Shown here in pieces: positions 26,413 through 49,750 of a stretch of 64,000 nt of DNA (positions within the stretch are counted from its first letter, which is position 1; each line of letters begins with the position of its first letter). A model generated the notes under the pieces. The model saw only the letters and a list, made by a program, of their open reading frames with translations. It ran no database searches and was not told where the DNA came from. The stretch is from Candidatus Kaiserbacteria bacterium (GTDB lineage: Bacteria; Patescibacteriota; Minisyncoccia; Phycocordibacterales; UBA2100). Where the stretch lies: assembly GCA_016217925.1 (NCBI GenBank), contig JACRFK010000003.1, positions 78,925 to 142,924 on the forward strand. The letters are read 5' to 3'. Both the position numbers and the translations under genes were made by a program.

Positions 26413-27516
26413 TTACAATCCTTCTTGTCTCAACTTCTCGATGAGTTCGCGCGCATGCCTCGAAAGCTTTTTTGGGAATTCGATATCCACACGTACCAAT
26501 AAATCGCCGCGGGCGCGACCGTGCGGTACGCCTTTGCCGCGTACCCGAATGACTTCGCCGTGAGCGATGCCCGGCTCTACGGTAAACATTTCGTCGCCGT
26601 CGAGCGTCTGTACACGGTACTCACCTCCGAGAAGTGCGTCGGAAAGTTTAATCGGGAGCGAAGTGACGAGGTTATTCCCCTCGCGTGAGAATTTTGCGTC
26701 GGATTTCACGTGCAATTTCACGTACAGGTCGCCCGGCGTAGCGCCCGGAGCAGCCTCACCTCGTCCCGGCATACGTATCATCTCTCCGTCCTCCACGCCG
26801 GAAGGCACAACGATGTGTATCTCTTCCTCGCGTTTGCGCACGCTTTCGCCACGGCACGCCTCACAGACCGTTTCGGGTATCTGACCTTTTCCGTGGCAGC
26901 GCGAGCACGGACGCGCCGACGTAAACGTCCCGAAAAATGAATTGCGTGACTCGCGAATCTCGCCTTTGCCGTTGCAGTTGGAACACGTGATGAGCTTCGA
27001 GCCTTTTTTTGCGCCGGAGCCGGCACAGGTGTCACATTGGCTCGTCTTGGTGAGCAGCACGCGGCGCTCGGCCCCGAATATTGATTCGCGGAAGGCAAGC
27101 TCTATATCTATTGAAATGTCGCGTCCCCGCCTCGTACGGGCCTGTCCGCCGCCGAATACGTCGCCAAAAATATCGCCCAAATCGAACTCAAATTGCTGCC
27201 CTCCGAAGGAGGGTCCGCCTCCGGCGGAAAAATTGGAGAAATCGAAGCCGCCGAATCCGCCTTGTCCTCCGAAGGAGGATCCACCTCCGGCGGACGGCCC
27301 CCCGCCTCCGGCGAAGGTCTTGCCGTAGGTATCGTATTCAGCGCGCTTCTTTTTATCGGAGAGTACCGAGTACGCCTCGCTCACCTCTTTGAATTTTTTC
27401 TCGTCGCCGCCTTTTTTATCGGGATGCAATTTGTGCGCCAGCTTTCTGAAAGCGGATTTGATTTCTTCTTCCGTCGCCGTCTTCGCGACGCCTAAAATAT
27501 CATAATAGTTTTTCAT
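26413..27516 (-). CDS. dnaJ: Chaperone DnaJ
   Basis: J-domain with HPD (KLHPDKK), a G/F-rich region, and four CxxCxGxG zinc-finger repeats. Confidence 0.9.
27199..27228. repeat. Diverged copy of the 30-bp GGS-encoding double-hairpin element (in the dnaJ G/F region)
   Basis: ccctccgaaggagggtccgcctccggcgga encodes [10 protein letters not shown] on the minus strand. Confidence 0.4.
27265..27294. repeat. Diverged copy of the 30-bp element (in the dnaJ G/F region)
   Basis: tcctccgaaggaggatccacctccggcgga encodes [10 protein letters not shown]. Confidence 0.45.
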
Positions 27517-27644: not shown

Positions 27645-29543
27645 TCATTCCTTTTTCGGTTCCTCAGGCGGTTTCTGTTCGTCTTTCGGCGGTTCTTGTC
27701 CTCCGGAGGAGGATCCGCCTTCGGCGGACGGGGGGGTTTGCTGATTTTTGCTCATCGCTTCGCCTATCGCACTCATGGCGGTGGAAAGTGCTTCGGCAGC
27801 GGATTTGATTGCCGCTGCGTCAGTACCGGCTCGAGCCGCCTTGGCGGCTTCGATCTTTTCCTGGACGTTCTTCTTGATATCCTCGCTCACCTTATCTCCG
27901 TGCTCGCGGAGTGCTTTTTCGGCTGCGTAGACGATTTGGTCGGCTGCGTTTTGGGCCTCAACCACATCCTTTTTCTGTTTGTCCGCCTCGGCGTTCACCT
28001 CGGCATCTTTACGCATCTTTTCAATATCGGCCTCCGAGAGGCCGGAGCTACCTTCAATGCGAATGGACTGCTCCTTGTTCGTGGACTTGTCTTTGGCCTT
28101 TACGGTAAGTATGCCATTTGCATCAATGTCGAATGAGACCTCCACTTGGGGCATACCGCGCGGCGCCGGCGGGATACCGTCGAGGTTGAAGCGCCCAAGC
28201 GACTTATTGTCGCCCGCCATCGGGCGTTCGCCCTGCACGACGTGAATTTCAACGGACGGTTGATTGTCGCTCGCCGTGGAAAACGTCTGCGAGCGCGAGG
28301 TCGGAATGGTCGTATTGCGTTCGATGAGCTTGGTCGCCACACCACCCATCGTCTCGATGCCGAGCGAAAGCGGAATGACATCAAGGAGGAGCACGTCTTT
28401 GACATCACCCTGCAAAATGCCGCCTTGGATAGCTGCACCGATGGCCACGACTTCGTCGGGATTCACACTCAAGTTCGGTTTTTTGCCGAAGAATTCCTCT
28501 ACAGCCTTCTGCATAGCCGGCATGCGCGTCTGGCCCCCAACGAGAACGACTTCGTTGATATCTCCGACCTTGAAAGGCGATGCTTCGACGGCGCGCTTGG
28601 TGATGGTCATGGCACGGTCTAAAAATTCACGCGTAAGCTCTTCGAGCTTCCCCCTCGTCATCTTGATGAGCAAGTGCTGCGGGCCGGCGTCGGTCGAGGT
28701 GATGAACGGGATGTTTATCTCCGTCTCAAGTGCGGTGGAGAGCTCAATCTTTGCCTTTTCCGCAGCTTCGTCGAGCCGTTGGCGAGCGAGCGGGTCCTTA
28801 CTCACATCAATGCCAGATTCCTTTTTGAACTCATCGGAAATCCAAGTCATTATCTTTTGGTCGATATCCCGCCCGCCCAGGTGTGCGTCACCGTCTGTAG
28901 AGCGCACTTCGATAACGTCGTCACCGACTTCAAGTACCGAGATGTCGAACGTACCGCCGCCGAAATCGAAGACCGCTATTTTTTCGTTCTTCTTTTTGTT
29001 GAATCCGTATGCGAGAGCTGCCGCCGTCGGCTCGTTGATGATGCGCTTCACATCAAGGCCTGCGATTTTGCCTGCGTCCTTCGTCGCCTGACGTTGAGAG
29101 TCGTTGAAGTACGCGGGTACGGTGATGACGGCCTCCGTGATGGTCTCTCCCAGTCGCGCCTCGGCGTCTTGCTTTAGCTTCTGCAGTATCATCGCGGATA
29201 TCTCCTCGGGGCGGTACCATTTATCCGCCATTTTTACTTCAATACCGCCGTTTGCGGACTTTTGCGTTTCAAATGAGACGGCGGCGCGATCCTTTGCGAC
29301 CGCGGGTTCGTCGAACGTGTGGCCGATAAAGCGTTTTATCTGGTATACCGTGTTCTTTGGGTTCGTTACTCCCTGTCGTTTGGCAAGGAGGCCGACAAGT
29401 CGCTCTGACGTTTTACCGACAGCAACGACCGACGGAGTCGTGCGGGCGCCCTCTGCGTTCTCGATTATCTGCGGCTCACCGCCTTTCACCACAGCAATGG
29501 CGGAGTTGGTCGTGCCGAGGTCTATACCTAATATCTTGCTCAT
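27645..29543 (-). CDS. dnaK: Chaperone DnaK (Hsp70)
   Basis: [19 protein letters not shown]...DLGGGTFD... Start set at MSKIL. The C-terminal tail carries the [10 protein letters not shown] insert. Confidence 0.9.
27699..27728. repeat. 30-bp GGATCC-centred double-hairpin element, in-frame in the dnaK 3' end
   Basis: tcctccggaggaggatccgccttcggcgga. The same 30-mer occurs again at 31179. Confidence 0.8.
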
Positions 29544-29556
29544 ATAGTTGCTAGGT

Positions 29557-29585
29557 GTTATATGCTTTGCTAAGCACTTTGTCAA
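29557..29585 (-). promoter_or_regulatory. Candidate sigma70-type promoter for dnaK
   Basis: On the minus strand: TTGACA, a 17-nt spacer, then TATAAC. This sits about 14 nt upstream of the dnaK ATG, so the leader is very short and the call is speculative. Confidence 0.3.
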
Positions 29586-29592
29586 CCCGGCG

Positions 29593-29675
29593 TTAAATTT
29601 TCAATTTGCAATTTACAATTTTGCAAATTTATACATTGTAAATTGATTGGAAATTAAAAATTGAGAATTGAAAAT
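29593..29675. repeat. AT-rich repetitive spacer between grpE and dnaK (paralogous to 34058-34151)
   Basis: Built from repeated TGTAAATTG / AAAATTCAT units, which is striking in a 57 % GC genome. Confidence 0.6.
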
Positions 29676-30218
29676 TCATTTCTTAACAATAACGTGCGCT
29701 GCCCGCAATACCCTGCCGTCCATTTTGTACCCGTAGCGCAATATTCGTGCCACTGTTCCGGATTCGCCCGCCACGTCGTCACGCTCTTCTACAGTTTCGT
29801 GTACCGCATGGTCGACAATTTGGCCGACTTTCCCGAATCGCTCCACGCCATGGCGCGAAAGCGCATCAAGAAGCTGGCTACGTATCTGCTCGATGCCGCT
29901 GCGCCACCCCGCGTCCATGCTCTCCCACGTTGGTGAGCTTGCGGCGATATCAAAACCGTCGAGCGCGGGGATGATATCCGCGATCAGGTCTTCCTTGGCA
30001 CGGGTGCCCAATCGCTCGGCGTTTGCAAGCATTTCTTTGCGTGCGTTCACACTATCGGCCTTGCAACGCTGCCACCCGTCGAGGTACTCCTGGCGCTCTG
30101 CCTTCACCTCCGCGAGTTCGTCCTTAAGTTTTTTGAGCTTTGCCTGTGCGGCGCCGACGTCCCCGAGCTCTTCATCGGGCTCGAAATTCAGTTCTTCATC
30201 CGGAGGGACGTTCTTCAT
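29676..30218 (-). CDS. grpE: Nucleotide exchange factor GrpE
   Basis: Coiled-coil N-terminus. C-terminal GrpE signature HEAVHETVEE...VLRAAHVIV. Confidence 0.85.
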   Translation of the reverse strand: MKNVPPDEELNFEPDEELGDVGAAQAKLKKLKDELAEVKAERQEYLDGWQRCKADSVNARKEMLANAERLGTRAKEDLIADIIPALDGFDIAASSPTWESMDAGWRSGIEQIRSQLLDALSRHGVERFGKVGQIVDHAVHETVEERDDVAGESGTVARILRYGYKMDGRVLRAAHVIVKK

Positions 30219-30387
30219 GACGAAGCGAGTATAACAAAAACACCCCGCGATTGCGAGGTGTTTTTGCTTGAGGGGTTGAATCTATCGCTTGCGTCACGAC
30301 TCTCGTCGCGCCACCGCGACTCGGTCGCGACCCCGCCTCGCGGCCTCGCCTACTGGCTCGGCATCGCTCCGGCCGTCGTAGTGTCAA

Positions 30388-30411
30388 GAAAAAGCGAAGC
30401 AGTTCGCTTTT
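30388..30411 (-). terminator. Rho-independent terminator after rpsI
   Basis: On the minus strand: GAAAAAGCGAAcTGCTTCGCTTTT, a hairpin followed by a U-tract. Confidence 0.55.
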
Positions 30412-30412
30412 T

Positions 30413-30808
30413 CTAGCGCTTCGACCATTGCGGCGCTCTGCGCGCAGCTTTGAGACCGAACTTCTTGCGTTCTTTTGCACGGGGGTCGCGTTTGAGGAAG
30501 CCTCGGACCTTGAGGTCTTTACGCTGCTCGGGGGTGACTTCTATCATCGCGCGGGAAAGACCGAGGCGTACCGCTTCTGCCTGCGCCTTGAGGCCGCCGC
30601 CCTGTACGTGCGCAGAGACAGCGTACGTCGCCCCCATAAGCTTCAACGGCGAAAATGCCATCTGCACCATGACCTCGAGCGGGAAGTATTCATTCGCAAG
30701 TTTACCGTTCACGGTCATCGAAGAGCTCTTCGCTTCGGTGATGCGCACGCGGGCTGTTGCGGTCTTCCGACGGCCTACTGCTTCTGTGTATCGTAATTCT
30801 TTTGCCAT
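30413..30808 (-). CDS. rpsI: 30S ribosomal protein S9
   Basis: GRRKTATARV...GGGLKAQAEAVRLG...ERKKFGLKAARRAPQWSKR. Confidence 0.9.
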   Translation of the reverse strand: MAKELRYTEAVGRRKTATARVRITEAKSSSMTVNGKLANEYFPLEVMVQMAFSPLKLMGATYAVSAHVQGGGLKAQAEAVRLGLSRAMIEVTPEQRKDLKVRGFLKRDPRAKERKKFGLKAARRAPQWSKR

Positions 30809-30810
30809 AC

Positions 30811-31167
30811 TTATTCGGTAACCGCTAAATTTTTCAGACGGGGCGTATGCATCGTGTTGCGCGGGAGCATCCGTGCGACGGCCCGGCGGAGCGCTTCGGC
30901 GTTGCCTTTGCGTGCGGTGAGCGATGCGAGGCTTTCGCGCTTCAAGCCGCCCGGGTATCCGGAGTAGGTGGTATAGATAGTGCGCGAGCGTTTGCGTTCA
31001 CGGATATAGAGCTTGCTTGCATTGGTGACGGAGACTTTGACGTTCGAATTTTTGTTGGGCGTGTAATCGGGGCGCATCTTGCCCATGAGGGCTTTTGCGG
31101 CCTCGGAGGCGACGCGCCCGAGTGTGCGGCCGGCGGCGTCGATTGTGTATGTGTTTTTTGTCTCCAT
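30811..31167 (-). CDS. rplM: 50S ribosomal protein L13
   Basis: YTIDAAGRTLGRVASEAAKALMGK matches the L13 N-terminus. Operon partner of rpsI. Confidence 0.85.
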   Translation of the reverse strand: METKNTYTIDAAGRTLGRVASEAAKALMGKMRPDYTPNKNSNVKVSVTNASKLYIRERKRSRTIYTTYSGYPGGLKRESLASLTARKGNAEALRRAVARMLPRNTMHTPRLKNLAVTE

Positions 31168-31172
31168 ACTAA

Positions 31173-31559
31173 TTATTTTCCTCCGGAGGAGGATCCGCCT
31201 TCGGCGGAAACGAATTCAATGCGTGCGGCTTCACCCACGCGCTTCCCTACTCTGCCGAGGTTAACGATGCGTGTGTAGCCGCCTGCTCGTTTTGCGTAGC
31301 GCGGGGCGTATACATCGTGAAGCTTTTTCACCACATCATGAGCACCGCCCATGCGCGTTTCGATGACGCGGCGTGACGCGAGTGTGTTCTTCTTGCTCAT
31401 CGAGACCATCCTCTCGACGAACGGGCGGAGTTCTTTTGCCTTTGCGATAGTGGTCGTAATTCCCTCGTGTAGTACGAGCGAACGCGCGAGACTGCGCAGA
31501 AGTGCCGTCCGTTGCCCCCTCTTACGTCCCAATGTTCTGTTCTTCTTGTGATGCTGCAT
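31173..31559 (-). CDS. rplQ: 50S ribosomal protein L17 (with [12 protein letters not shown]-terminal extension)
   Basis: MQHHKKNRTLGRKRGQRTALLRSLARSLVLHEGITTT. The last 11 codons come from the 30-bp element. Confidence 0.85.
   Translation of the reverse strand: MQHHKKNRTLGRKRGQRTALLRSLARSLVLHEGITTTIAKAKELRPFVERMVSMSKKNTLASRRVIETRMGGAHDVVKKLHDVYAPRYAKRAGGYTRIVNLGRVGKRVGEAARIEFVSAEGGSSSGGK
31179..31208. repeat. 30-bp GGATCC-centred double-hairpin element, in-frame at the extreme 3' end of rplQ
   Basis: tcctccggaggaggatccgccttcggcgga, 30/30 identical to the dnaK copy. Confidence 0.8.
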
Positions 31560-31565
31560 ACCAGG

Positions 31566-32543
31566 TTACTTATCGTTGCGGAGAGTGAGACCCATGTTCG
31601 AGAGCGCGCGTTTAATGTCCTGAAGTCCTTTTTGGCCGAGCCCTTCTATAGCAAGAAGGTCATCTTCTCGCTTGCGTACCAATCCTCCGACGGTCCGGAT
31701 AGAAGCGTTATCGAGCGCCTGCTCCACACGCTGCGGCATGCTTAATTCCGTGATACGGGTCTTCAAAACTTCCGCGTCCATGGCTCCTCCCTTGTCTTCG
31801 CGGGAACCAGCGTGTGCTTCGGTCGCGCCAGAGAGTGCCTCCGGCGTCTCGTCCTCCTTGAATCCGACGACGGCCTTGAGCTGATGGATCATGGTCTCAA
31901 TAGAACTCTCAAGTGCTTCTCGCGGAGCAAGAGTGCCGTCGGTCTCGATAACGATACGGAGACGGTTGAAATCCGTGCGGTCTCCGACGCGCATGTTTTC
32001 CACTTCGTAATTGACACGGCGTATCGGCGAGAATATCGCGTCAAGCGCGATGGTCCCGATCTCCACGCGCTCCTTTTGGTGCATCTCCTTTGCGATGTAG
32101 CCAAGACCGCGTTCCGCGCGCAGCTCTAATTCAAGATTGACTTTGCCGCTTACATCGGCGATGTGCTGTTCCGGATTCAATATTTCGACTTGGCCGGGCA
32201 ATTTAAAATCTGCGGCGGTCACTTCTTTCGGCCCCTTCACTGAAAGCGTGATTGTCTGAGGTTCATCGGTCAGGAGCTTGAGGCGGACCTTGCGGATATT
32301 GAGCAAGAGCGTTACAACGTCCTCCTTGACGCCTTCGATGGTGGAGAATTCATGCGCGACCCCGGGAAGTTTGACGTGCGTGACAGCTGCGCCCGGAAGG
32401 GACGAGAGGATGATGCGGCGCAACGAATTTCCCAGAGTGTAGCCGTATCCCGGATAGAGTCCGTCTATTTCATAGGTACCGCCTCGCTCTGTTTCGGAGA
32501 CGACGCGCGGTTTGCTGGGCAGTGCAATGTGGTAATCCGACAT
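31566..32543 (-). CDS. rpoA: DNA-directed RNA polymerase alpha subunit
   Basis: GYGYTLGNSLRRIILSSLPGAAVT N-terminal domain. Has a C-terminal alpha-CTD. Confidence 0.9.
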   Translation of the reverse strand: MSDYHIALPSKPRVVSETERGGTYEIDGLYPGYGYTLGNSLRRIILSSLPGAAVTHVKLPGVAHEFSTIEGVKEDVVTLLLNIRKVRLKLLTDEPQTITLSVKGPKEVTAADFKLPGQVEILNPEQHIADVSGKVNLELELRAERGLGYIAKEMHQKERVEIGTIALDAIFSPIRRVNYEVENMRVGDRTDFNRLRIVIETDGTLAPREALESSIETMIHQLKAVVGFKEDETPEALSGATEAHAGSREDKGGAMDAEVLKTRITELSMPQRVEQALDNASIRTVGGLVRKREDDLLAIEGLGQKGLQDIKRALSNMGLTLRNDK

Positions 32544-32593
32544 AAAAAAATGATAACGTCAAGCTGCTAGTAAAAATCGCCAACAATTATAAC

Positions 32594-33211
32594 CTATCTG
32601 CTGTAGAACTCAAAGACCGTAGGATAATCGAGTCCGGTCTCAACGGTGTTGTACGTCGGCTCTCCGACGACCTCTGCTTTGAGCAAGCTAAGGTCAACGG
32701 TGAGCCATGCGGGAACGGAACGGGTGTTCTCTGCTTTGTTCTCGAGAAGGCCGGCAAACAACGGGCTTCGGCGGCTACCCTCCCGGACGCTGACTACATC
32801 ACCCTTGCGGACGCGGTACGAAGGGACCGTCGTTCGCTTGCTGTTGATCAGGATGTGGCCGTGAGAGAGAGCTTGACGTGCAGCACGGCGTGTGGGCAAA
32901 AGGCCTGCGCGATACGCGACGCTATCTGCGCGCATTTCGAGCGCGCGATGCAAACTCGCCGACGGATCAGGTTGCGTGTACGCCACTTTTGCATAATTGG
33001 AAAGCTGTTTCTCCGAGATGCCATAGGTAAAGCGGACGCGCTGCTTCTCCAAAAGCTGTCTCCCGTAATCACTGCCGCCCCGGCCTCCGCGGGTTTTCTT
33101 ATTTGCAGCCGAGCGTGCCTCCGAGAGTGCGAATTTTTGTGACTGCGTCTTTTCAAAGATGGCGGCGCCAAGTCTTTTTGCGATCTTAAATTTTGATTTT
33201 ATCAGCAACAT
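32594..33211 (-). CDS. rpsD: 30S ribosomal protein S4
   Basis: S4 N-terminal region plus S4 RNA-binding domain (RLD..VYR.G). Confidence 0.9.
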   Translation of the reverse strand: MLLIKSKFKIAKRLGAAIFEKTQSQKFALSEARSAANKKTRGGRGGSDYGRQLLEKQRVRFTYGISEKQLSNYAKVAYTQPDPSASLHRALEMRADSVAYRAGLLPTRRAARQALSHGHILINSKRTTVPSYRVRKGDVVSVREGSRRSPLFAGLLENKAENTRSVPAWLTVDLSLLKAEVVGEPTYNTVETGLDYPTVFEFYSR

Positions 33212-33216
33212 ATATA

Positions 33217-33651
33217 TTAGACCCTTCGAGGCTTTGGCGGTCGGGGGCCATTATGCGGTATCGGGGTGTCGTCGGCAATTCGAGTGACGTCAATACCTTT
33301 ACTGACAAATCCGCGCATTGCGGATTCGCGACCGGCGCCGACACCACGGATGACGACATCCACTTCTTTGACGCCGATGATGGCCGCTTTGTCCCCAACA
33401 AGTTCGCCGACTTTTGCGGCAGCAAATGGAGTGCCTTTCTTGGCGCCTGAAAAGCCGAGAGCGCCTGAGGACGACCACGCGACCGCGTTGCCGCTCTTGT
33501 CTGTCAGAAGGACTTTGGTGTTGTTGTACGTCGCATGGATATGCAGTGTGCCCGCGAGAATGTTCTTCTTTGCGATGCGCGCGAGAGAGCGGGACTTGAG
33601 TCCTTGGTCCACGCTACCTCCGCTCTTTCTTATGATGCGCTTTTTTCCCAT
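33217..33651 (-). CDS. rpsK: 30S ribosomal protein S11
   Basis: LHIHATYNNTKVLLTD..GN....SSGALGFSGAKKGTPFAA. Confidence 0.9.
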   Translation of the reverse strand: MGKKRIIRKSGGSVDQGLKSRSLARIAKKNILAGTLHIHATYNNTKVLLTDKSGNAVAWSSSGALGFSGAKKGTPFAAAKVGELVGDKAAIIGVKEVDVVIRGVGAGRESAMRGFVSKGIDVTRIADDTPIPHNGPRPPKPRRV

Positions 33652-33676
33652 ACTGGTACAAAAATAAATTTTTTGA

Positions 33677-34057
33677 TTATGTCTTCTCCAACTTGCGGCG
33701 GCCGGATGTCATCGTCTTTCTGACGTTGCCACGGACCGTGCGGGAATTGGTTTTTGAACGCTGACCACGACCCGGCAAATGTTTGGCGTGGCGGCTCCCT
33801 CGATAAGATTTAATGTCTTTGAGCCGGCGGATATTGCCGCTCACGTCGCGGCGCAATTCCCCTTCTACGGTAAACTTCTCGACTGCTTCGCGAAGCGAGG
33901 TCTCTTCTTTTGCCGAAACATCTTTCGGTTTCTTACCGGCGTCTATGCCGAGTGCTTTAAGTGTGGCAAGCGCTCGTGGTCGGCCGATGCCATAAATGGC
34001 GGTCAGGCCTATTTCGAGGCGCTTTTCTTCGGGTATGGTGATTCCAGCGATACGCAT
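33677..34057 (-). CDS. rpsM: 30S ribosomal protein S13
   Basis: MRIAGITIPEEKRLEIGLTAIYGIGRPRA. Confidence 0.9.
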   Translation of the reverse strand: MRIAGITIPEEKRLEIGLTAIYGIGRPRALATLKALGIDAGKKPKDVSAKEETSLREAVEKFTVEGELRRDVSGNIRRLKDIKSYRGSRHAKHLPGRGQRSKTNSRTVRGNVRKTMTSGRRKLEKT

Positions 34058-34151
34058 ATGAATAATTTTTAATTTACAATTTTCAATTTACAAAATTGGG
34101 ACATTGAAAATTCATTGCAAAATTGAAAATTGATAACTGAAAATTTGAGTT
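34058..34151. repeat. AT-rich repetitive spacer between rpmJ and rpsM (paralogous to 29593-29675)
   Basis: Shares AATTTACAATTTT and ATTGAAAATTCATT with the grpE-dnaK spacer. Confidence 0.6.
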
Positions 34152-34265
34152 CTAGCCTTGTCGTTGTTTATGTCTTGGATTTTTACAAATAACCCACAAT
34201 CGCCCGCGACGCTTCACTGCGTGGCAATGTGTACAGATCTTTTTGACTGAGGATTTTACTTTCAT
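34152..34265 (-). CDS. rpmJ: 50S ribosomal protein L36 (not in the ORF track)
   Basis: Manual translation gives [37 protein letters not shown], a zinc-ribbon L36. Confidence 0.8.
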
Positions 34266-34682: not shown

Positions 34683-36155
34683 CTATTTGACCACTTCAGG
34701 CACGACCACGTCGATCTTGATGTCGGAAGCTGTAGCCGGAAAGCTGTTTTTCCAGAACGGGGCGATACGCGCACGTGCCTCCTGGACGCCTGAGAATCCG
34801 TTTACAATACCCTGAAATGCCGAGTTGTCCTTGCCCTCCAAAGCCTTCGCAAGTGCCTCAGCGTCGACCTTCCAGATAACAAGGGCGGAGCCGGATACAG
34901 CAAGGTTGAGAATGCTTGGTTGGCCATCAATGCTGGACGAGGCAAACTGAACGGAAAAGTCGTCCGATGGCTTCAGGGTGACTAATTCAGCATCGTCGAA
35001 ATCGGTAAATGCCGATCGAGCGACAGATCGTGCGAAGGCGTCTGAAGAAAATGTCGGCACCGTCACACGTGCCTTTTGGTGGATCCTCACCGAGCTACCA
35101 GCCTCCGTCGTATTGGGCAGCGATTCGTACGTGATTCGGATGAGCTCTGGAAATACGGAAACGCCATCTTTGGCCTGGCCAATCGCGGCCTCGTGGGCCT
35201 TTGTCTCGAGCCTTGTGCGCACGGCGGAGATGGCGCTGTCGAGCTCTCCTGGTGTTGTGCCGGGCTGTTCACCCGCGAAGCCCCCCGAGAATGCGTCGGT
35301 CGACTTCGCGTATACACCCGCGTACATAGGCGCGGTCGATTTGAGTCCGGGAAGGGTGAACTTCGCGACAGGACCAATATTGTACTTCTCACCGGGCTGG
35401 TCTGCGGCGACTGTGACATTGACCTGTCCAGGTGCCGAACCGACTTTTCCCGGAACCACGACATCGGACAGTGCACGGTAGATGAGACCCTCGGGAGATT
35501 CGAATCGTGTCGTTTTAACCAAGCGAACAGGAGATGCAGAATATGAGTTATAAACAGTGATGCTACCGGAGGCTTTCGTTTCAACGTGGGTCGTGCCTTG
35601 TGCGGCGACGACCCCGGAGTCCTCGAGGTCGAAGGTCTGCACGGTATACGCGAGCGTACCGGGTGTCGCCTCTGACGCATCGGCTACTTGGTACGCCGTG
35701 AGCGTGGTGGAAGAAAGCGTAGCCATACGCGATTTGGGTGTAACTGTGATGGTGGTTGAGGAAAACACAAAAAGAAGCGACGCGGCAGCGATGAGAACAA
35801 CGAGTGACGCAGCCGCCCAAATCCACAGACGAGTAGCGCGGCGCGGCGGGCGTAGCGGACCTCCGCCTGAAGCGTCACGAATGTCGGTATCCATACGATT
35901 CGGTGCCCCCGTGACTCGAAATGGGCGTGAACGCGCCGGAGGAGATATGCTCCGTATGCCGCGCGAGGCCGGATCGGCCGTCCCATCAGTACCCATAGAT
36001 GCATCAGCTACGCGTATCGGTATGTCGCGTGCGTCGGTCGGCCGGTCAAGTGGCTCTTCCTCCACGGGCGCCTGGGGTGGGCGGGGAGTGAACTGACGCG
36101 GTGGAGTCGGAGCACCGGATGGTGGCGTAATATCTTGAAAGTAATCTTTTGCCAT
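34683..36155 (-). CDS. Hypothetical single-pass membrane protein with Pro-rich N-terminus and large extracytoplasmic domain
   Basis: 490-aa ORF with one TM helix at about residue 110 and no known motif. Confidence 0.45.
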   Translation of the reverse strand: MAKDYFQDITPPSGAPTPPRQFTPRPPQAPVEEEPLDRPTDARDIPIRVADASMGTDGTADPASRGIRSISPPARSRPFRVTGAPNRMDTDIRDASGGGPLRPPRRATRLWIWAAASLVVLIAAASLLFVFSSTTITVTPKSRMATLSSTTLTAYQVADASEATPGTLAYTVQTFDLEDSGVVAAQGTTHVETKASGSITVYNSYSASPVRLVKTTRFESPEGLIYRALSDVVVPGKVGSAPGQVNVTVAADQPGEKYNIGPVAKFTLPGLKSTAPMYAGVYAKSTDAFSGGFAGEQPGTTPGELDSAISAVRTRLETKAHEAAIGQAKDGVSVFPELIRITYESLPNTTEAGSSVRIHQKARVTVPTFSSDAFARSVARSAFTDFDDAELVTLKPSDDFSVQFASSSIDGQPSILNLAVSGSALVIWKVDAEALAKALEGKDNSAFQGIVNGFSGVQEARARIAPFWKNSFPATASDIKIDVVVPEVVK

Positions 36156-36204
36156 GTAATTTTCTCGAAATTATGTCGCGACTTCTATATTCTACCTCAC
36201 AAAA

Positions 36205-37362
36205 TCATGCCCGCCTTTCTTCGATGTTAACAAGTGCGGCGGCGAGGTGAATGCCTGTGTCAATGCGTACTGCAGTTTCGGGAAGCGCCCAATGCGCGAG
36301 ATCAAGCGACTTTAGAGACGAGACAACGAATGGTTGTGTTGTTGTGGTGAATTGCGCGAAATCGATACGAGAAAAAAGTCCGCTAAGCCACGGAATGAGG
36401 TCTTGGTGCGTCGTAAGTATGAGATGGTTTGGTAAGCGTTGGCGTTGGACTAATTTCGCAATAGCTTCGCCAAATGCACGAACAAGCTCTGGCTCGGCCT
36501 TTGCCGCAGCGGCATTAACCGCCTCACACGCGGGGTCGTGGCATTCTCCACCCGCAATAAGGCGCAACAAGGTCAGAGTGTCGTCCGGCATATTATTTCC
36601 ACTGATCCGTTTAAGGATCGAATTCTTTCCTTCAGACGTTGACGCGTATTCCGTCACGAGTCCGTTCCGGATCACCATAAAACTTGTTCCCTCGCTAGCC
36701 ATATCCACAACTACAAATTCGTCGGGCGACGCCGGAGTAACCCGCATGACAGAGAGCGTCGCGTGAACTCCCGAACGCCATGTGACCGGCTGGGAGCCAA
36801 AAAGTTGTTGCAGCGCGCTATTCACCGATGCACGTAATCCTGGGTCGCAACCGCTGACAAGCGCAGAGACGTTAAGCTCGTTGCCGGATTTCCCCTCCGG
36901 CCGACTTGTCGGATATCCGTTGACCTCGACGCGCACAACTCCGGCTTCTAGGATATTCTCTCGGGCAAATTCAGTATCTTCTGCAAGGGCCTGTTGCGCA
37001 AGTTTGCCTATCACCTTGCCTGAAATGGACGTCGCCTTGGGGAAAGTCGTCCGCGCCGTGACCGTTTTTGAGCGTGTCCACGGTGCGCGGATGATGGCGT
37101 AGACGGAATGCGGCATCTTCCCTCCCGCTTCTCTGTGGTTTTCGAGCGCGTGCTGTCCCGCCCCTATCAAATGCGCGCCGATGGCGGCAATAATTGCCGC
37201 AGGAGAGCGCTCCTCAATGGGTAGGGAACGACGCTCTGCAGCGAGTATGCGTACCGGCCCGTCTTTTGGTACGGCAAGTATGGCGACGGCGGCGCTTCCG
37301 CTCCCGATATCCGCGACGGCGACAATCTTTTCGCGCGAACGCCCGAGATGTATTCCGAACAT
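36205..37362 (-). CDS. ASKHA (actin-like ATPase) fold protein, possibly Ppx/GppA-family
   Basis: VAVADIGSGSAAVAIL phosphate-1 motif and DMASEGTSFMV phosphate-2-like motif. A weak call. Confidence 0.35.
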   Translation of the reverse strand: MFGIHLGRSREKIVAVADIGSGSAAVAILAVPKDGPVRILAAERRSLPIEERSPAAIIAAIGAHLIGAGQHALENHREAGGKMPHSVYAIIRAPWTRSKTVTARTTFPKATSISGKVIGKLAQQALAEDTEFARENILEAGVVRVEVNGYPTSRPEGKSGNELNVSALVSGCDPGLRASVNSALQQLFGSQPVTWRSGVHATLSVMRVTPASPDEFVVVDMASEGTSFMVIRNGLVTEYASTSEGKNSILKRISGNNMPDDTLTLLRLIAGGECHDPACEAVNAAAAKAEPELVRAFGEAIAKLVQRQRLPNHLILTTHQDLIPWLSGLFSRIDFAQFTTTTQPFVVSSLKSLDLAHWALPETAVRIDTGIHLAAALVNIEERRA

Positions 37363-48218: not shown

Positions 48219-48340
48219 GAAAAGTGTCGCGCCGCGCATGCGAATAGTATATAGCCACTAGGCTTTAGGGTCTAGGAGGATTCTGTACAAACGGAGGAAT
48301 TTAATTTTCTAATGGCTACACACTATTGGCTAATTCCTAT

Positions 48341-49237: not shown

Positions 49238-49654
49238 TTATATCGTTATACGGCTAGGAAGAGCCGGTTCGACGATTATGGGGAGACCGATCCCGTCGAG
49301 AGTTGCAATAAATGCGACACCTGTCGCGGGTGCGAACAGGACGGTACGAAAATAACGAGGCACCTCGTTCATCTCACAGATGACGGATGGTTCACGCCAC
49401 GTGCGAAAAACGAGCATATAGGTGAAGTCTGCGAGCGCCTCGGTCCGAACAGAAAGCTGATCGCATGGTGTCGGCACCATGATCATTCCCGACAGATGAT
49501 GCGCGCCCGACCCCAGTTCGTCCCGAACGATAATGGGCTGATTTTCGCGCGACTCTTGCGCATGTACGACGCTTCCCGCAATGAGGTACACCGCGTACGC
49601 GACTACGCTCGCAACAACAAAAAACCACAGCATGCGGGATATGATCGCACCCAT
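49238..49654 (-). CDS. Hypothetical membrane protein
   Basis: 138-aa ORF with an N-terminal TM helix. Confidence 0.35.
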   Translation of the reverse strand: MGAIISRMLWFFVVASVVAYAVYLIAGSVVHAQESRENQPIIVRDELGSGAHHLSGMIMVPTPCDQLSVRTEALADFTYMLVFRTWREPSVICEMNEVPRYFRTVLFAPATGVAFIATLDGIGLPIIVEPALPSRITI

Positions 49655-49671
49655 ACGAACAGTGTATAGGG

Positions 49672-49750
49672 ATTAGCCACTAGCCACTAGGAAAAAATGT
49701 GTATATGAATTTTTACTAGTGGCTAAGGACTAGTCGCTAGTGGCTATTAT
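49672..49750. repeat. Compound inverted repeat built from TAGCCACTAG / CTAGTGGCTA 10-mers
   Basis: The left arm has two copies of TAGCCACTAG and the right arm two of CTAGTGGCTA, with an AT-rich loop between them. It overlaps the mnmA 3' end. An additional half-site lies at 48253-48264. Confidence 0.5.

Follow-up and report, generated by a model that had tools for sequence, protein, structure and literature searches.

Several kinds of short repeats have been described from the intergenic spacers of bacteria. Correia elements (NEMIS) of Neisseria, RUP, REP/BIME and the RPE of Rickettsia are ~80-150 bp long with inverted-repeat arms, lie dispersed in spacers near genes, are co-transcribed with these genes and differ in presence or absence among related strains. 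The ends of Correia elements can create outward promoters, and the Correia hairpin is a substrate of RNase III. The STRR1-3 sequences of heterocystous cyanobacteria are tandem 7-nt intergenic units present in many copies per genome and without an assigned function. Putative mobile promoters, homologous short intergenic sequences upstream of unrelated genes, have reportedly been described as "promoter propagation in prokaryotes". We analyzed 64,000 nt of the genome of a Candidatus Kaiserbacteria bacterium (GenBank assembly GCA_016217925.1, contig JACRFK010000003.1, positions 78,925 to 142,924 of the forward strand; this whole stretch is hereafter the window), in which the grpE/dnaK and rpmJ/rpsM spacers are copies of one portable AT-rich heptad palindrome. 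By comparison, small palindromic repeats resembling miniature inverted-repeat transposable elements (MITEs), such as Correia, together with mobile promoters and the cyanobacterial STRR heptamers, appear closest to it in behavior.

The window element shares with the Correia-type repeats its size, its inverted-repeat arms, its place in spacers near genes and its presence or absence among relatives. Unlike them, it shows neither a TA target-site duplication nor a link to a transposase, its two copies are only 80% alike, its arms are tandem 7-bp arrays and, for a genome with 54% GC, its AT content is extreme. Among the hallmarks of a MITE, we found terminal inverted repeats of 26 nt in both copies (85% complementary) and filled as well as empty orthologous sites among relatives. 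As for dispersion, the 64 kb of the window contain these two copies, 80% identical, and no third one. The flanks (..AAATG/element/TAACG.. and ..CTCAA/element/ATTCA..) contain no target-site duplication, and no transposase was present among the Pfam-scanned neighbors, which are a subset of the window's open reading frames (ORFs). The STRRs likewise consist of 7-nt units, but these are CCCCAGT and others rather than CAATTTN/NAAATTG, their hosts belong to a different phylum from Kaiserbacteria, and inverted pairs with a constant spacing to start codons are not known from their descriptions. Like mobile promoters, heptad palindromes precede dnaK, rpsM, rpsG, groEL, tuf and other genes within and between genomes, although their architecture is foreign to that concept and the promoter here is a prediction. 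Our searches of the literature on the repeat sequence, on heptanucleotide repeats and on leaderless transcripts or intergenic repeats of candidate-phyla-radiation bacteria found no description of these elements, and heptad-period palindromes are apparently an undescribed class.

Two copies of one palindrome and their orthologous sites

The element is ~82 nt long with 18% GC. On the gene strand it consists of four to six CAATTTN heptads, a short center and four NAAATTG heptads (coordinates in Table 1). In both copies the center includes CAAT[C/G]AATTT[A/T]CAATGT, and that of copy 1 contains CAATCAATTTACAATGT. The copies are imperfect palindromes with 29 or 30 nt between their arms, and each arm is an array of tandem 7-nt units (Tandem Repeats Finder, TRF: period 7, 4.3-4.4 copies per arm, 79-83% matches). 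They are collinear and in the same orientation, with 66 identities over 83 positions and a single 1-nt gap. The alignment score is 47, whereas dinucleotide shuffles reach 11.0 ± 3.3 (z = 10.9) and shuffled 7-mer blocks 19.0 ± 4.0 (z = 7.0); aligned in opposite orientation the copies score 31, and alignment of each copy with its reverse complement gives 27 and 25. An earlier note on this DNA had proposed that the two spacers are built from shared short units, which proved to be an understatement.

Several words are confined to the two AT-rich islands. Within the window, AATTTACAATTTT occurs only at 29610 and 34071, AAAATTCAT only at 29671 and 34107, and CAATTTACA, which is TGTAAATTG read on the other strand, only at 29609 and 34084, and all five occurrences of AATTT.CAATTT fall inside the two islands. 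The expectation that such motifs would recur at further promoters was not borne out, as no other intergenic region of the window has them. The two spacers are the longest and lowest-GC islands of the window (29589-29697 and 34041-34159); as the earlier note delimited them, their GC is 17% (grpE/dnaK) and 19% (rpmJ/rpsM), against a measured window GC of 54.1% rather than the 57% it had given. Its names for the four flanking genes agree with Pfam, and all four are on the minus strand. The left edge of copy 1 overlaps the present grpE stop (TGA, 29678-29676). Copy 2 begins ~6 nt past the rpmJ TAG stop and ends 6 nt ahead of the rpsM ATG (34057), upstream of which there is no Shine-Dalgarno sequence. 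An independent Logan assembly (run SRR12113407, contig L001) is identical over 2173 nt that include copy 1 and its number of units, and copy 1 is therefore not an assembly artefact.

We compared the locus with five distinct syntenic relatives (L122/L123, L124, L125/L126, L127 and L128; GrpE identity 73-81%), all of which have the gene order infA-rpmJ-rpsM-rpsK-rpsD-rpoA-rplQ-rplM-rpsI-grpE-dnaK. None of the five has the AT-rich heptad element between grpE and dnaK. Instead, the grpE stop is followed after 10-13 nt by TTGACA-N17-TATA(C/T)A and then by a leader of ~30-45 nt. At the rpmJ/rpsM junction, four of the five (L124, L125, L127 and L128) have a gap of only 1-6 nt. The site is thus empty in all five relatives for dnaK and in four for rpsM. 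Because the orthologous spacers of relatives are without the element, the two window copies are lineage-specific insertions into formerly minimal spacers and not a conserved operator; the shared regulatory operator linking dnaK and rpsM that had been suggested earlier fails on the same absence. The TAA directly past the right end of copy 1 was probably the grpE stop before the insertion.

The fifth relative (L122/L123) has a different palindrome at rpmJ/rpsM, of ~95 nt (L122 5913-6012) and with TAGTTTN/NAAACTA heptads. Its unit TAGTTTN contains the TAG stop codon of rpmJ, a hint that the palindrome arose at this site by slippage. Arms of the CTAAAAC type, similar to this palindrome, precede genes in the loci L169, L160, L201 and L230.

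The TTGACA-N17-TATAAC promoter reported previously upstream of dnaK is present at 29585-29557, and its counterpart is conserved in all five relatives. Its -35 hexamer lies 10 nt downstream of the end of the 3' arm of copy 1. Our consensus promoter scanner (threshold 9/12) does not list this site since the second hexamer has no T at position 6. We searched the window for the CIRCE/HrcA operator TTAGCACTC-N9-GAGTGCTAA and obtained no matches at up to three mismatches, in agreement with the earlier report; CIRCE was accordingly rejected as a candidate. The dnaK promoters of relatives (L122 10562-10644, L125 10544-10626, L127 7520-7601) have an inverted repeat across the -10 region, for example ACACCTCC-T-GGAGGTGT in L125, which is a candidate non-CIRCE heat-shock operator. 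Window positions 29544-29592 have neither this inverted repeat nor the ~45-nt leader of the relatives, with a 13-nt interval instead.

Gene starts elsewhere in the window bear on the predicted dnaK transcript. In at least 12 operon-first genes, grpE included, a TGnTAtAnT or TATACT box precedes the ATG by 6-10 nt and there is no Shine-Dalgarno sequence; few window genes have one (dnaJ, rplM). Leaderless mRNAs thus appear to be the norm in this genome. The almost leaderless dnaK transcript predicted earlier is plausible because a very short leader fits this start pattern.

Two further heptad palindromes lie in the window, and their units are not AT-rich. All seven TRF rows with at least three copies in the window have period 7. 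The palindrome at 1024-1101 has 28-nt arms (79% complementary). An exonuclease gene of the RNase_T family starts (ATG at 1108) 7 nt past its last TATACT (1095-1100), and counted from this start the Pfam RNase_T match begins at residue 2. In the palindrome at 49667-49749, whose 5' arm overlaps the final codons of a tRNA methyltransferase gene, the CTAGTGG units continue in register into TATACA (49668-49663), followed after 8 nt by the ATG at 49654. CTAGTGG heptads likewise stand ahead of the TATACT-N6-ATG of the MgtC gene at 48239. Both palindromes support a role at gene starts because they end in this genome's own leaderless -10 box.

The 7-nt period and the distance to start codons

We scanned GTDB genomes for four AAATTG heptads, and the matches listed are spread over many phyla. 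We also scanned metagenomes for the palindromic form. With duplicates removed, the matches listed comprise at least 86 different palindromes. Among these matches, the full palindromic form is mostly on Patescibacteria-like contigs. The dispersed repeat family that the earlier note had considered is supported, and the element has close relatives in other genomes. The element in the rpsL/rpsG spacer of locus L169, for example, scores 61 and 58 against the two window copies, which score 47 against each other. Some Patescibacteria have several such elements per 8 kb, each occupying a whole spacer. Of the 86 palindromes listed, 31 lie between co-directional and ~10 between convergent genes, and the context of the remainder could not be assigned.

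One identical locus recurs in many human-gut metagenomes (L129, L134, L137 and ~30 more) and reads CAATTTACAATTT, a 24-nt GC-rich center and AAATTGTAAATTG; presumably, it is one common gut bacterium with a heptad palindrome. In six loci from other phyla (L036, L112, L189, L200, L202 and L247), including Thermoanaerobaculia with 63-68% GC, AAATTG/CAATTT arrays flank small GC-rich hairpins. Where the order is convergent (A-rich arm, hairpin, T-rich arm), they resemble bidirectional intrinsic terminators with extended A/T tracts.

We assessed the specificity of the unit with two control heptads of the same composition, AATATGN and ATTAAGN. Our initial chance estimate for AAATTG arrays (~1 match) left the birth of tandem repeats out of account. 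Broad taxonomic spread was discarded as proof of a special motif, given that viral contigs contain arrays of the control heptads at least as often. None of the three units had a palindromic match in viral contigs, and we found no phage link. The period behaves differently. Among the fetched loci (L002-L248), period-7 arrays are 4-7 fold commoner than those of period 6 or 8, even without the AAATT/AATTT units (160 vs 24 and 45; 108 vs 16 and 25). The distinctive trait is the 7-base period, not the unit AAATTG. The period-7 arrays come from several phyla and have many unrelated units (CTAAAAC, GAATACT, ACTTATA, GGTTAGA and others); often they are only 0-9 nt away from a start codon.

The distance between the last AAATT of the outward arm and the ATG of the next long ORF peaks at exactly 8 nt in the fetched loci (11-12 cases). 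Neighboring bins hold 1-5 cases, and distances of 6-8 nt together account for 20. Copy 2, at 6 nt from the rpsM ATG, falls within this 6-8 nt peak. In the same loci the bases between arm and ATG are not Shine-Dalgarno-like. Genes that start within 10 nt past an arm are housekeeping genes and encode S7, L32, L27, EF-Tu, RpoA, NusB, GroEL, DnaA, RNase III, three aminoacyl-tRNA synthetases, GlmS and others. T-rich and A-rich arrays both abut start codons. We considered two further signatures and set them aside: a pyrimidine at -1 as a mark of transcription starts is only weakly above its 68% background, and a correspondence between element polarity and gene direction was rejected.

Candidate roles of the heptad palindromes

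We propose, with a probability of roughly 0.4, that the heptad palindromes are portable promoter-proximal modules for leaderless or near-leaderless genes. The anatomy of the copies, their insertion status, their family membership and the spacing statistics are observed, whereas promoter activity, transcription start sites and an effect on expression are predicted. The 8-nt peak, the start pattern of operon-first genes in the window and the housekeeping genes past the arms speak for the proposal. The modules would act mainly at the DNA level, in a genome that seems to start most operons with leaderless mRNAs. The gene-facing arm consists of four heptads, and owing to the 7-bp period a -35-like TTGNAA is followed after exactly 17 bp by a -10-like NAAAAT. 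This spacing in (TTGNAAA)n, the optimal one, follows from 23 = 3 x 7 + 2, so that four heptads span one promoter. Copy 2 has one such sigma-70-like candidate, the sole one on the gene strand (Table 1), in which AAAAAT lies 7 nt before the Shine-Dalgarno-less ATG of rpsM. It would give an internal leaderless or near-leaderless transcript of the alpha operon. A 94-nt insertion into a 1-6-nt junction without a Shine-Dalgarno sequence destroys translational coupling, so the insert would have to bring its own initiation signals; the internal transcript would replace the lost coupling.

At dnaK, the same arm stands in the position of an upstream (UP) element relative to the conserved promoter, where it may add a tandem start or stimulate the existing one. 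As in UP elements of the rrnB P1 type, a block of A/T tracts lies directly upstream of the -35 hexamer, with GCAAATTGAAAATTT of copy 1 at about -59 to -45. When the UP consensus AAAWWTWTTTTNNNAAANNN is set against positions -59 to -38 of copy 1 (GCAAATTGAAAATTTAACGCCG), the distal AAATT matches, unlike the rest and the proximal subsite, which is rich in GC. No more than about half of the consensus positions agree. The element also reaches ~80 nt further upstream and, unlike the situation at dnaK, a separate core promoter is missing at copy 2. Both copies may plausibly have a promoter or UP-like role, and the link of heptad palindromes to leaderless starts is suggestive.

Several observations weigh against start modules. 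The hexamers of the window copies are weak (8/12 matches, under the 9/12 scanner threshold) and have no TGn. Such hexamers are missing altogether from the rpmJ/rpsM palindrome of L122/L123, and CTAAAAC-type heptads abut start codons without promoter-like hexamers; promoter hexamers are therefore not what unites the class. If the arms are promoters, the upstream one would drive antisense transcription into rpmJ or grpE. Of the 86 listed palindromes, ~10 are flanked by convergent genes, and many are more than 30 nt away from any start codon. The element's internal polarity does not follow gene direction (4 vs 5). Enrichment of a pyrimidine at -1 is modest (21/24 vs a background of 0.68, p = 0.025). 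In viral contigs, four-unit AAATTGN arrays form 42 stretches, compared with 43 for AATATGN and 87 for ATTAAGN.

We weighed four other explanations. It is possible, though doubtful, that the palindromes are selfish or neutral repeats without a role of their own, either MITE-like or local heptad microsatellites that arose by slippage and fold-back duplication in permissive sites. Their proximity to start codons would then come from the filling of whole spacers or from an AT-rich target such as a -10 box. Presence/absence polymorphism among close relatives, inverted-repeat arms, occurrence in all intergenic contexts (convergent pairs included), polarity independent of gene direction, the equal abundance of other AT-rich heptad arrays in viral contigs, the local TAG in the L122 unit (which suggests birth in situ) and the several copies per 8 kb in some Patescibacteria are all in keeping with such repeats. 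Against such repeats stand the lack of a target-site duplication at both copies, just 80% identity between the copies and no transposase among the Pfam-scanned neighbors. Random filling does not predict the sharp 8-nt peak, nor plain slippage a period of 7 that is 4-7 times commoner than 6 or 8, and the insert persists although the essential rpsM lost its coupling. A role in RNA is unlikely in our view. An A/U-rich hairpin or leader in the polycistronic mRNA might recruit ribosomes without a Shine-Dalgarno sequence (S1-type or cold-shock-domain proteins), or the element might be a double-stranded site of RNase III-type processing or of stability, comparable to Correia or REP elements, and so uncouple rpsM or dnaK from the cistron ahead. 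On the gene strand, the two copies have better folds than their shuffles (copy 1, -18.5 kcal/mol, z = -3.6; copy 2, -16.2 kcal/mol, z = -2.75), the ~26-bp arms are long enough for RNase III, 8 nt to the AUG resembles Shine-Dalgarno spacing and the non-promoter-like CTAAAAC heptads occupy the equivalent place. The hosts of heptad arrays, we assume, use Shine-Dalgarno sequences sparingly. Yet the antisense fold of copy 1 is as stable as the sense fold (-19.8 kcal/mol), there are no compensatory changes between the copies, T-rich as well as A-rich arrays abut start codons and no Rfam family reaches its gathering threshold. The sense strand has the more stable fold in 21 vs 9 of 30 oriented family members (Wilcoxon p = 0.058), whereas the variable bases of mirrored heptads are 43% Watson-Crick (z = -1.4 vs within-element shuffles). 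With no excess complementarity and a marginal difference between strands, a strict hairpin under selection was rejected.

The absence of excess pairing at the variable bases points to recognition of the unit rather than of a strict hairpin, which is in keeping with the proposed start modules. It would also suit an array bound by a protein that recognizes 7-bp units in both orientations, or by a nucleoid or AT-hook-type reader of AAATT minor grooves, which would regulate or insulate downstream promoters; we nevertheless regard such an array as improbable. The strict 7-bp period in direct and inverted blocks, conservation of the unit but not of pairing and the strong over-representation of period 7 with many units in the same genomes argue for it. 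Operators of the omega (ribbon-helix-helix) protein of plasmid pSM19035 likewise have contiguous 7-bp units, direct and inverted, that overlap promoters, but the likeness is one of geometry only, since their unit is WATCACW rather than AAATTGN and the setting here is chromosomal housekeeping genes. Our search for a cognate ribbon-helix-helix gene was confined to the Pfam-scanned neighbors, and no candidate protein was identified there. The element is absent from relatives, hence there is no conserved regulon, and differing units per locus would require many readers. Heptanucleotide repeats in promoter regions are known to tune expression (PMC8262952, PMC12721329), and a phase-variable simple-sequence repeat, in which slippage alters the number of units and so tunes promoter spacing (Haemophilus hmw1A has such 7-bp repeats upstream), would account for tandem 7-mers adjoining promoters. 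This explanation is very improbable: imperfect units within the arms (79-83% matches) suppress slippage, the targets are core housekeeping genes and the Logan assembly has an equal number of units.

Beyond the window, we advance tentatively, as a doubtful proposal, that inverted period-7 arrays are a distinct and widespread class of cis-elements in Patescibacteria and perhaps other low-Shine-Dalgarno lineages, in which a 7-nt-periodic reader marks or creates leaderless starts. The reader might be RNA polymerase/sigma, to which four heptads offer a 17-bp register, or else a protein of the OB-fold or ribbon-helix-helix type. Units (AAATTGN, TATACTC, CTAGTGG, CTAAAAC) would be interchangeable, and the period and the ~8 nt to the ATG would be decisive. 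Such a class would offer a function for the long-unexplained STRR-type heptamer repeats. Almost nothing is known of transcription and translation initiation in candidate-phyla-radiation bacteria. Portable start modules would explain how essential ribosomal and chaperone genes continue to be expressed after disruption of an operon junction, provide ready-made promoter parts for new genetic systems in Patescibacteria and give intergenic heptanucleotide repeats, known since 1990 without one, a testable function. If the palindromes are instead selfish repeats, they would mark rapid intergenic turnover in very small genomes and call for caution in motif-based regulon prediction.

Features of the window

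Table 1 Positions of the elements, start signals and genes in the window
Feature	Position	Strand	Description or basis
Copy 1, AT-rich heptad palindrome, grpE/dnaK spacer	29596-29677	minus	18% GC
Copy 1 arms	29596-29621 and 29651-29676	minus	85% complementary
Copy 2, same element, fills rpmJ/rpsM spacer	34064-34146	minus	alignment with copy 1
Copy 2 arms	34064-34089 and 34120-34145	minus	85% complementary
TAA directly past copy 1 right end (..GAAAATT/TAACGCCGGGTTGACA)	29593-29595	minus	sequence reading
dnaK promoter-like site	29557-29585	minus	TTGACA (29585-29580), 17 nt, TATAAC (29562-29557), 13 nt to ATG 29543
Sigma-70-like candidate in copy 2	34065-34093	minus	TTGTAA (34093-34088), 17 nt, AAAAAT (34070-34065), TATTCAT, rpsM ATG
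Third heptad palindrome	1024-1101	plus	[A/C/T]GTATGG x4, 22-nt center, TATACTC x4; TRF period 7
Fourth heptad palindrome	49667-49749	minus	TAGCCAC-type units, center, CTAGTGG units; TRF period 7
Operon-first gene starts with extended -10 box, examples	2730, 14884, 23032, 25854, 30218, 37362, 58122, 58164		
dnaJ	26413-27516	minus	Pfam
dnaK	27645-29543	minus	Pfam
grpE	29676-30218	minus	Pfam
rpsM	33677-34057	minus	Pfam
rpmJ	34152-34265	minus	Pfam; TAG stop 34152-34154

Three described elements were compared with the copies and rejected. The leader of the alpha operon with its S4 site (Rfam RF00140) is likewise a hairpin at the boundary of the spc and alpha operons, directly 5' of where rpsM starts. 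Copy 2 differs from this leader in that it lacks both a Shine-Dalgarno sequence and a pseudoknot, and the element precedes dnaK as well. Alpha_RBS (RF00140) scored 24.4 bits vs a gathering threshold of 38, and the match comes from the beginning of the rpsM coding sequence together with a generic stem of 10 bp. TIGR arrays, which stand beside a Tas gene with a Nop domain, are made of many ~36-nt units in tandem that contain edge repeats, loop repeats and dual spacers (PMC12045711). The window element has a period of 7 rather than 36, is a single ~82-nt unit with grpE/dnaK and rpmJ/rpsM as neighbors and has no Tas gene. An integron attC site was also dismissed. The flanks of copy 1 (GTTAA...TTAAC) are in the order opposite to R''/R', and copy 2 is without such flanks.

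Upstream of infA, the interval between alaS and infA (34683-37362, minus strand; syntenic in L122-L128) encodes two proteins of ~385 and ~490 amino acids whose function is unassigned; they have weak Baseplate_J or GlxA matches and nothing stronger. This interval is the usual place of secY-adk-map ahead of infA-rpmJ.

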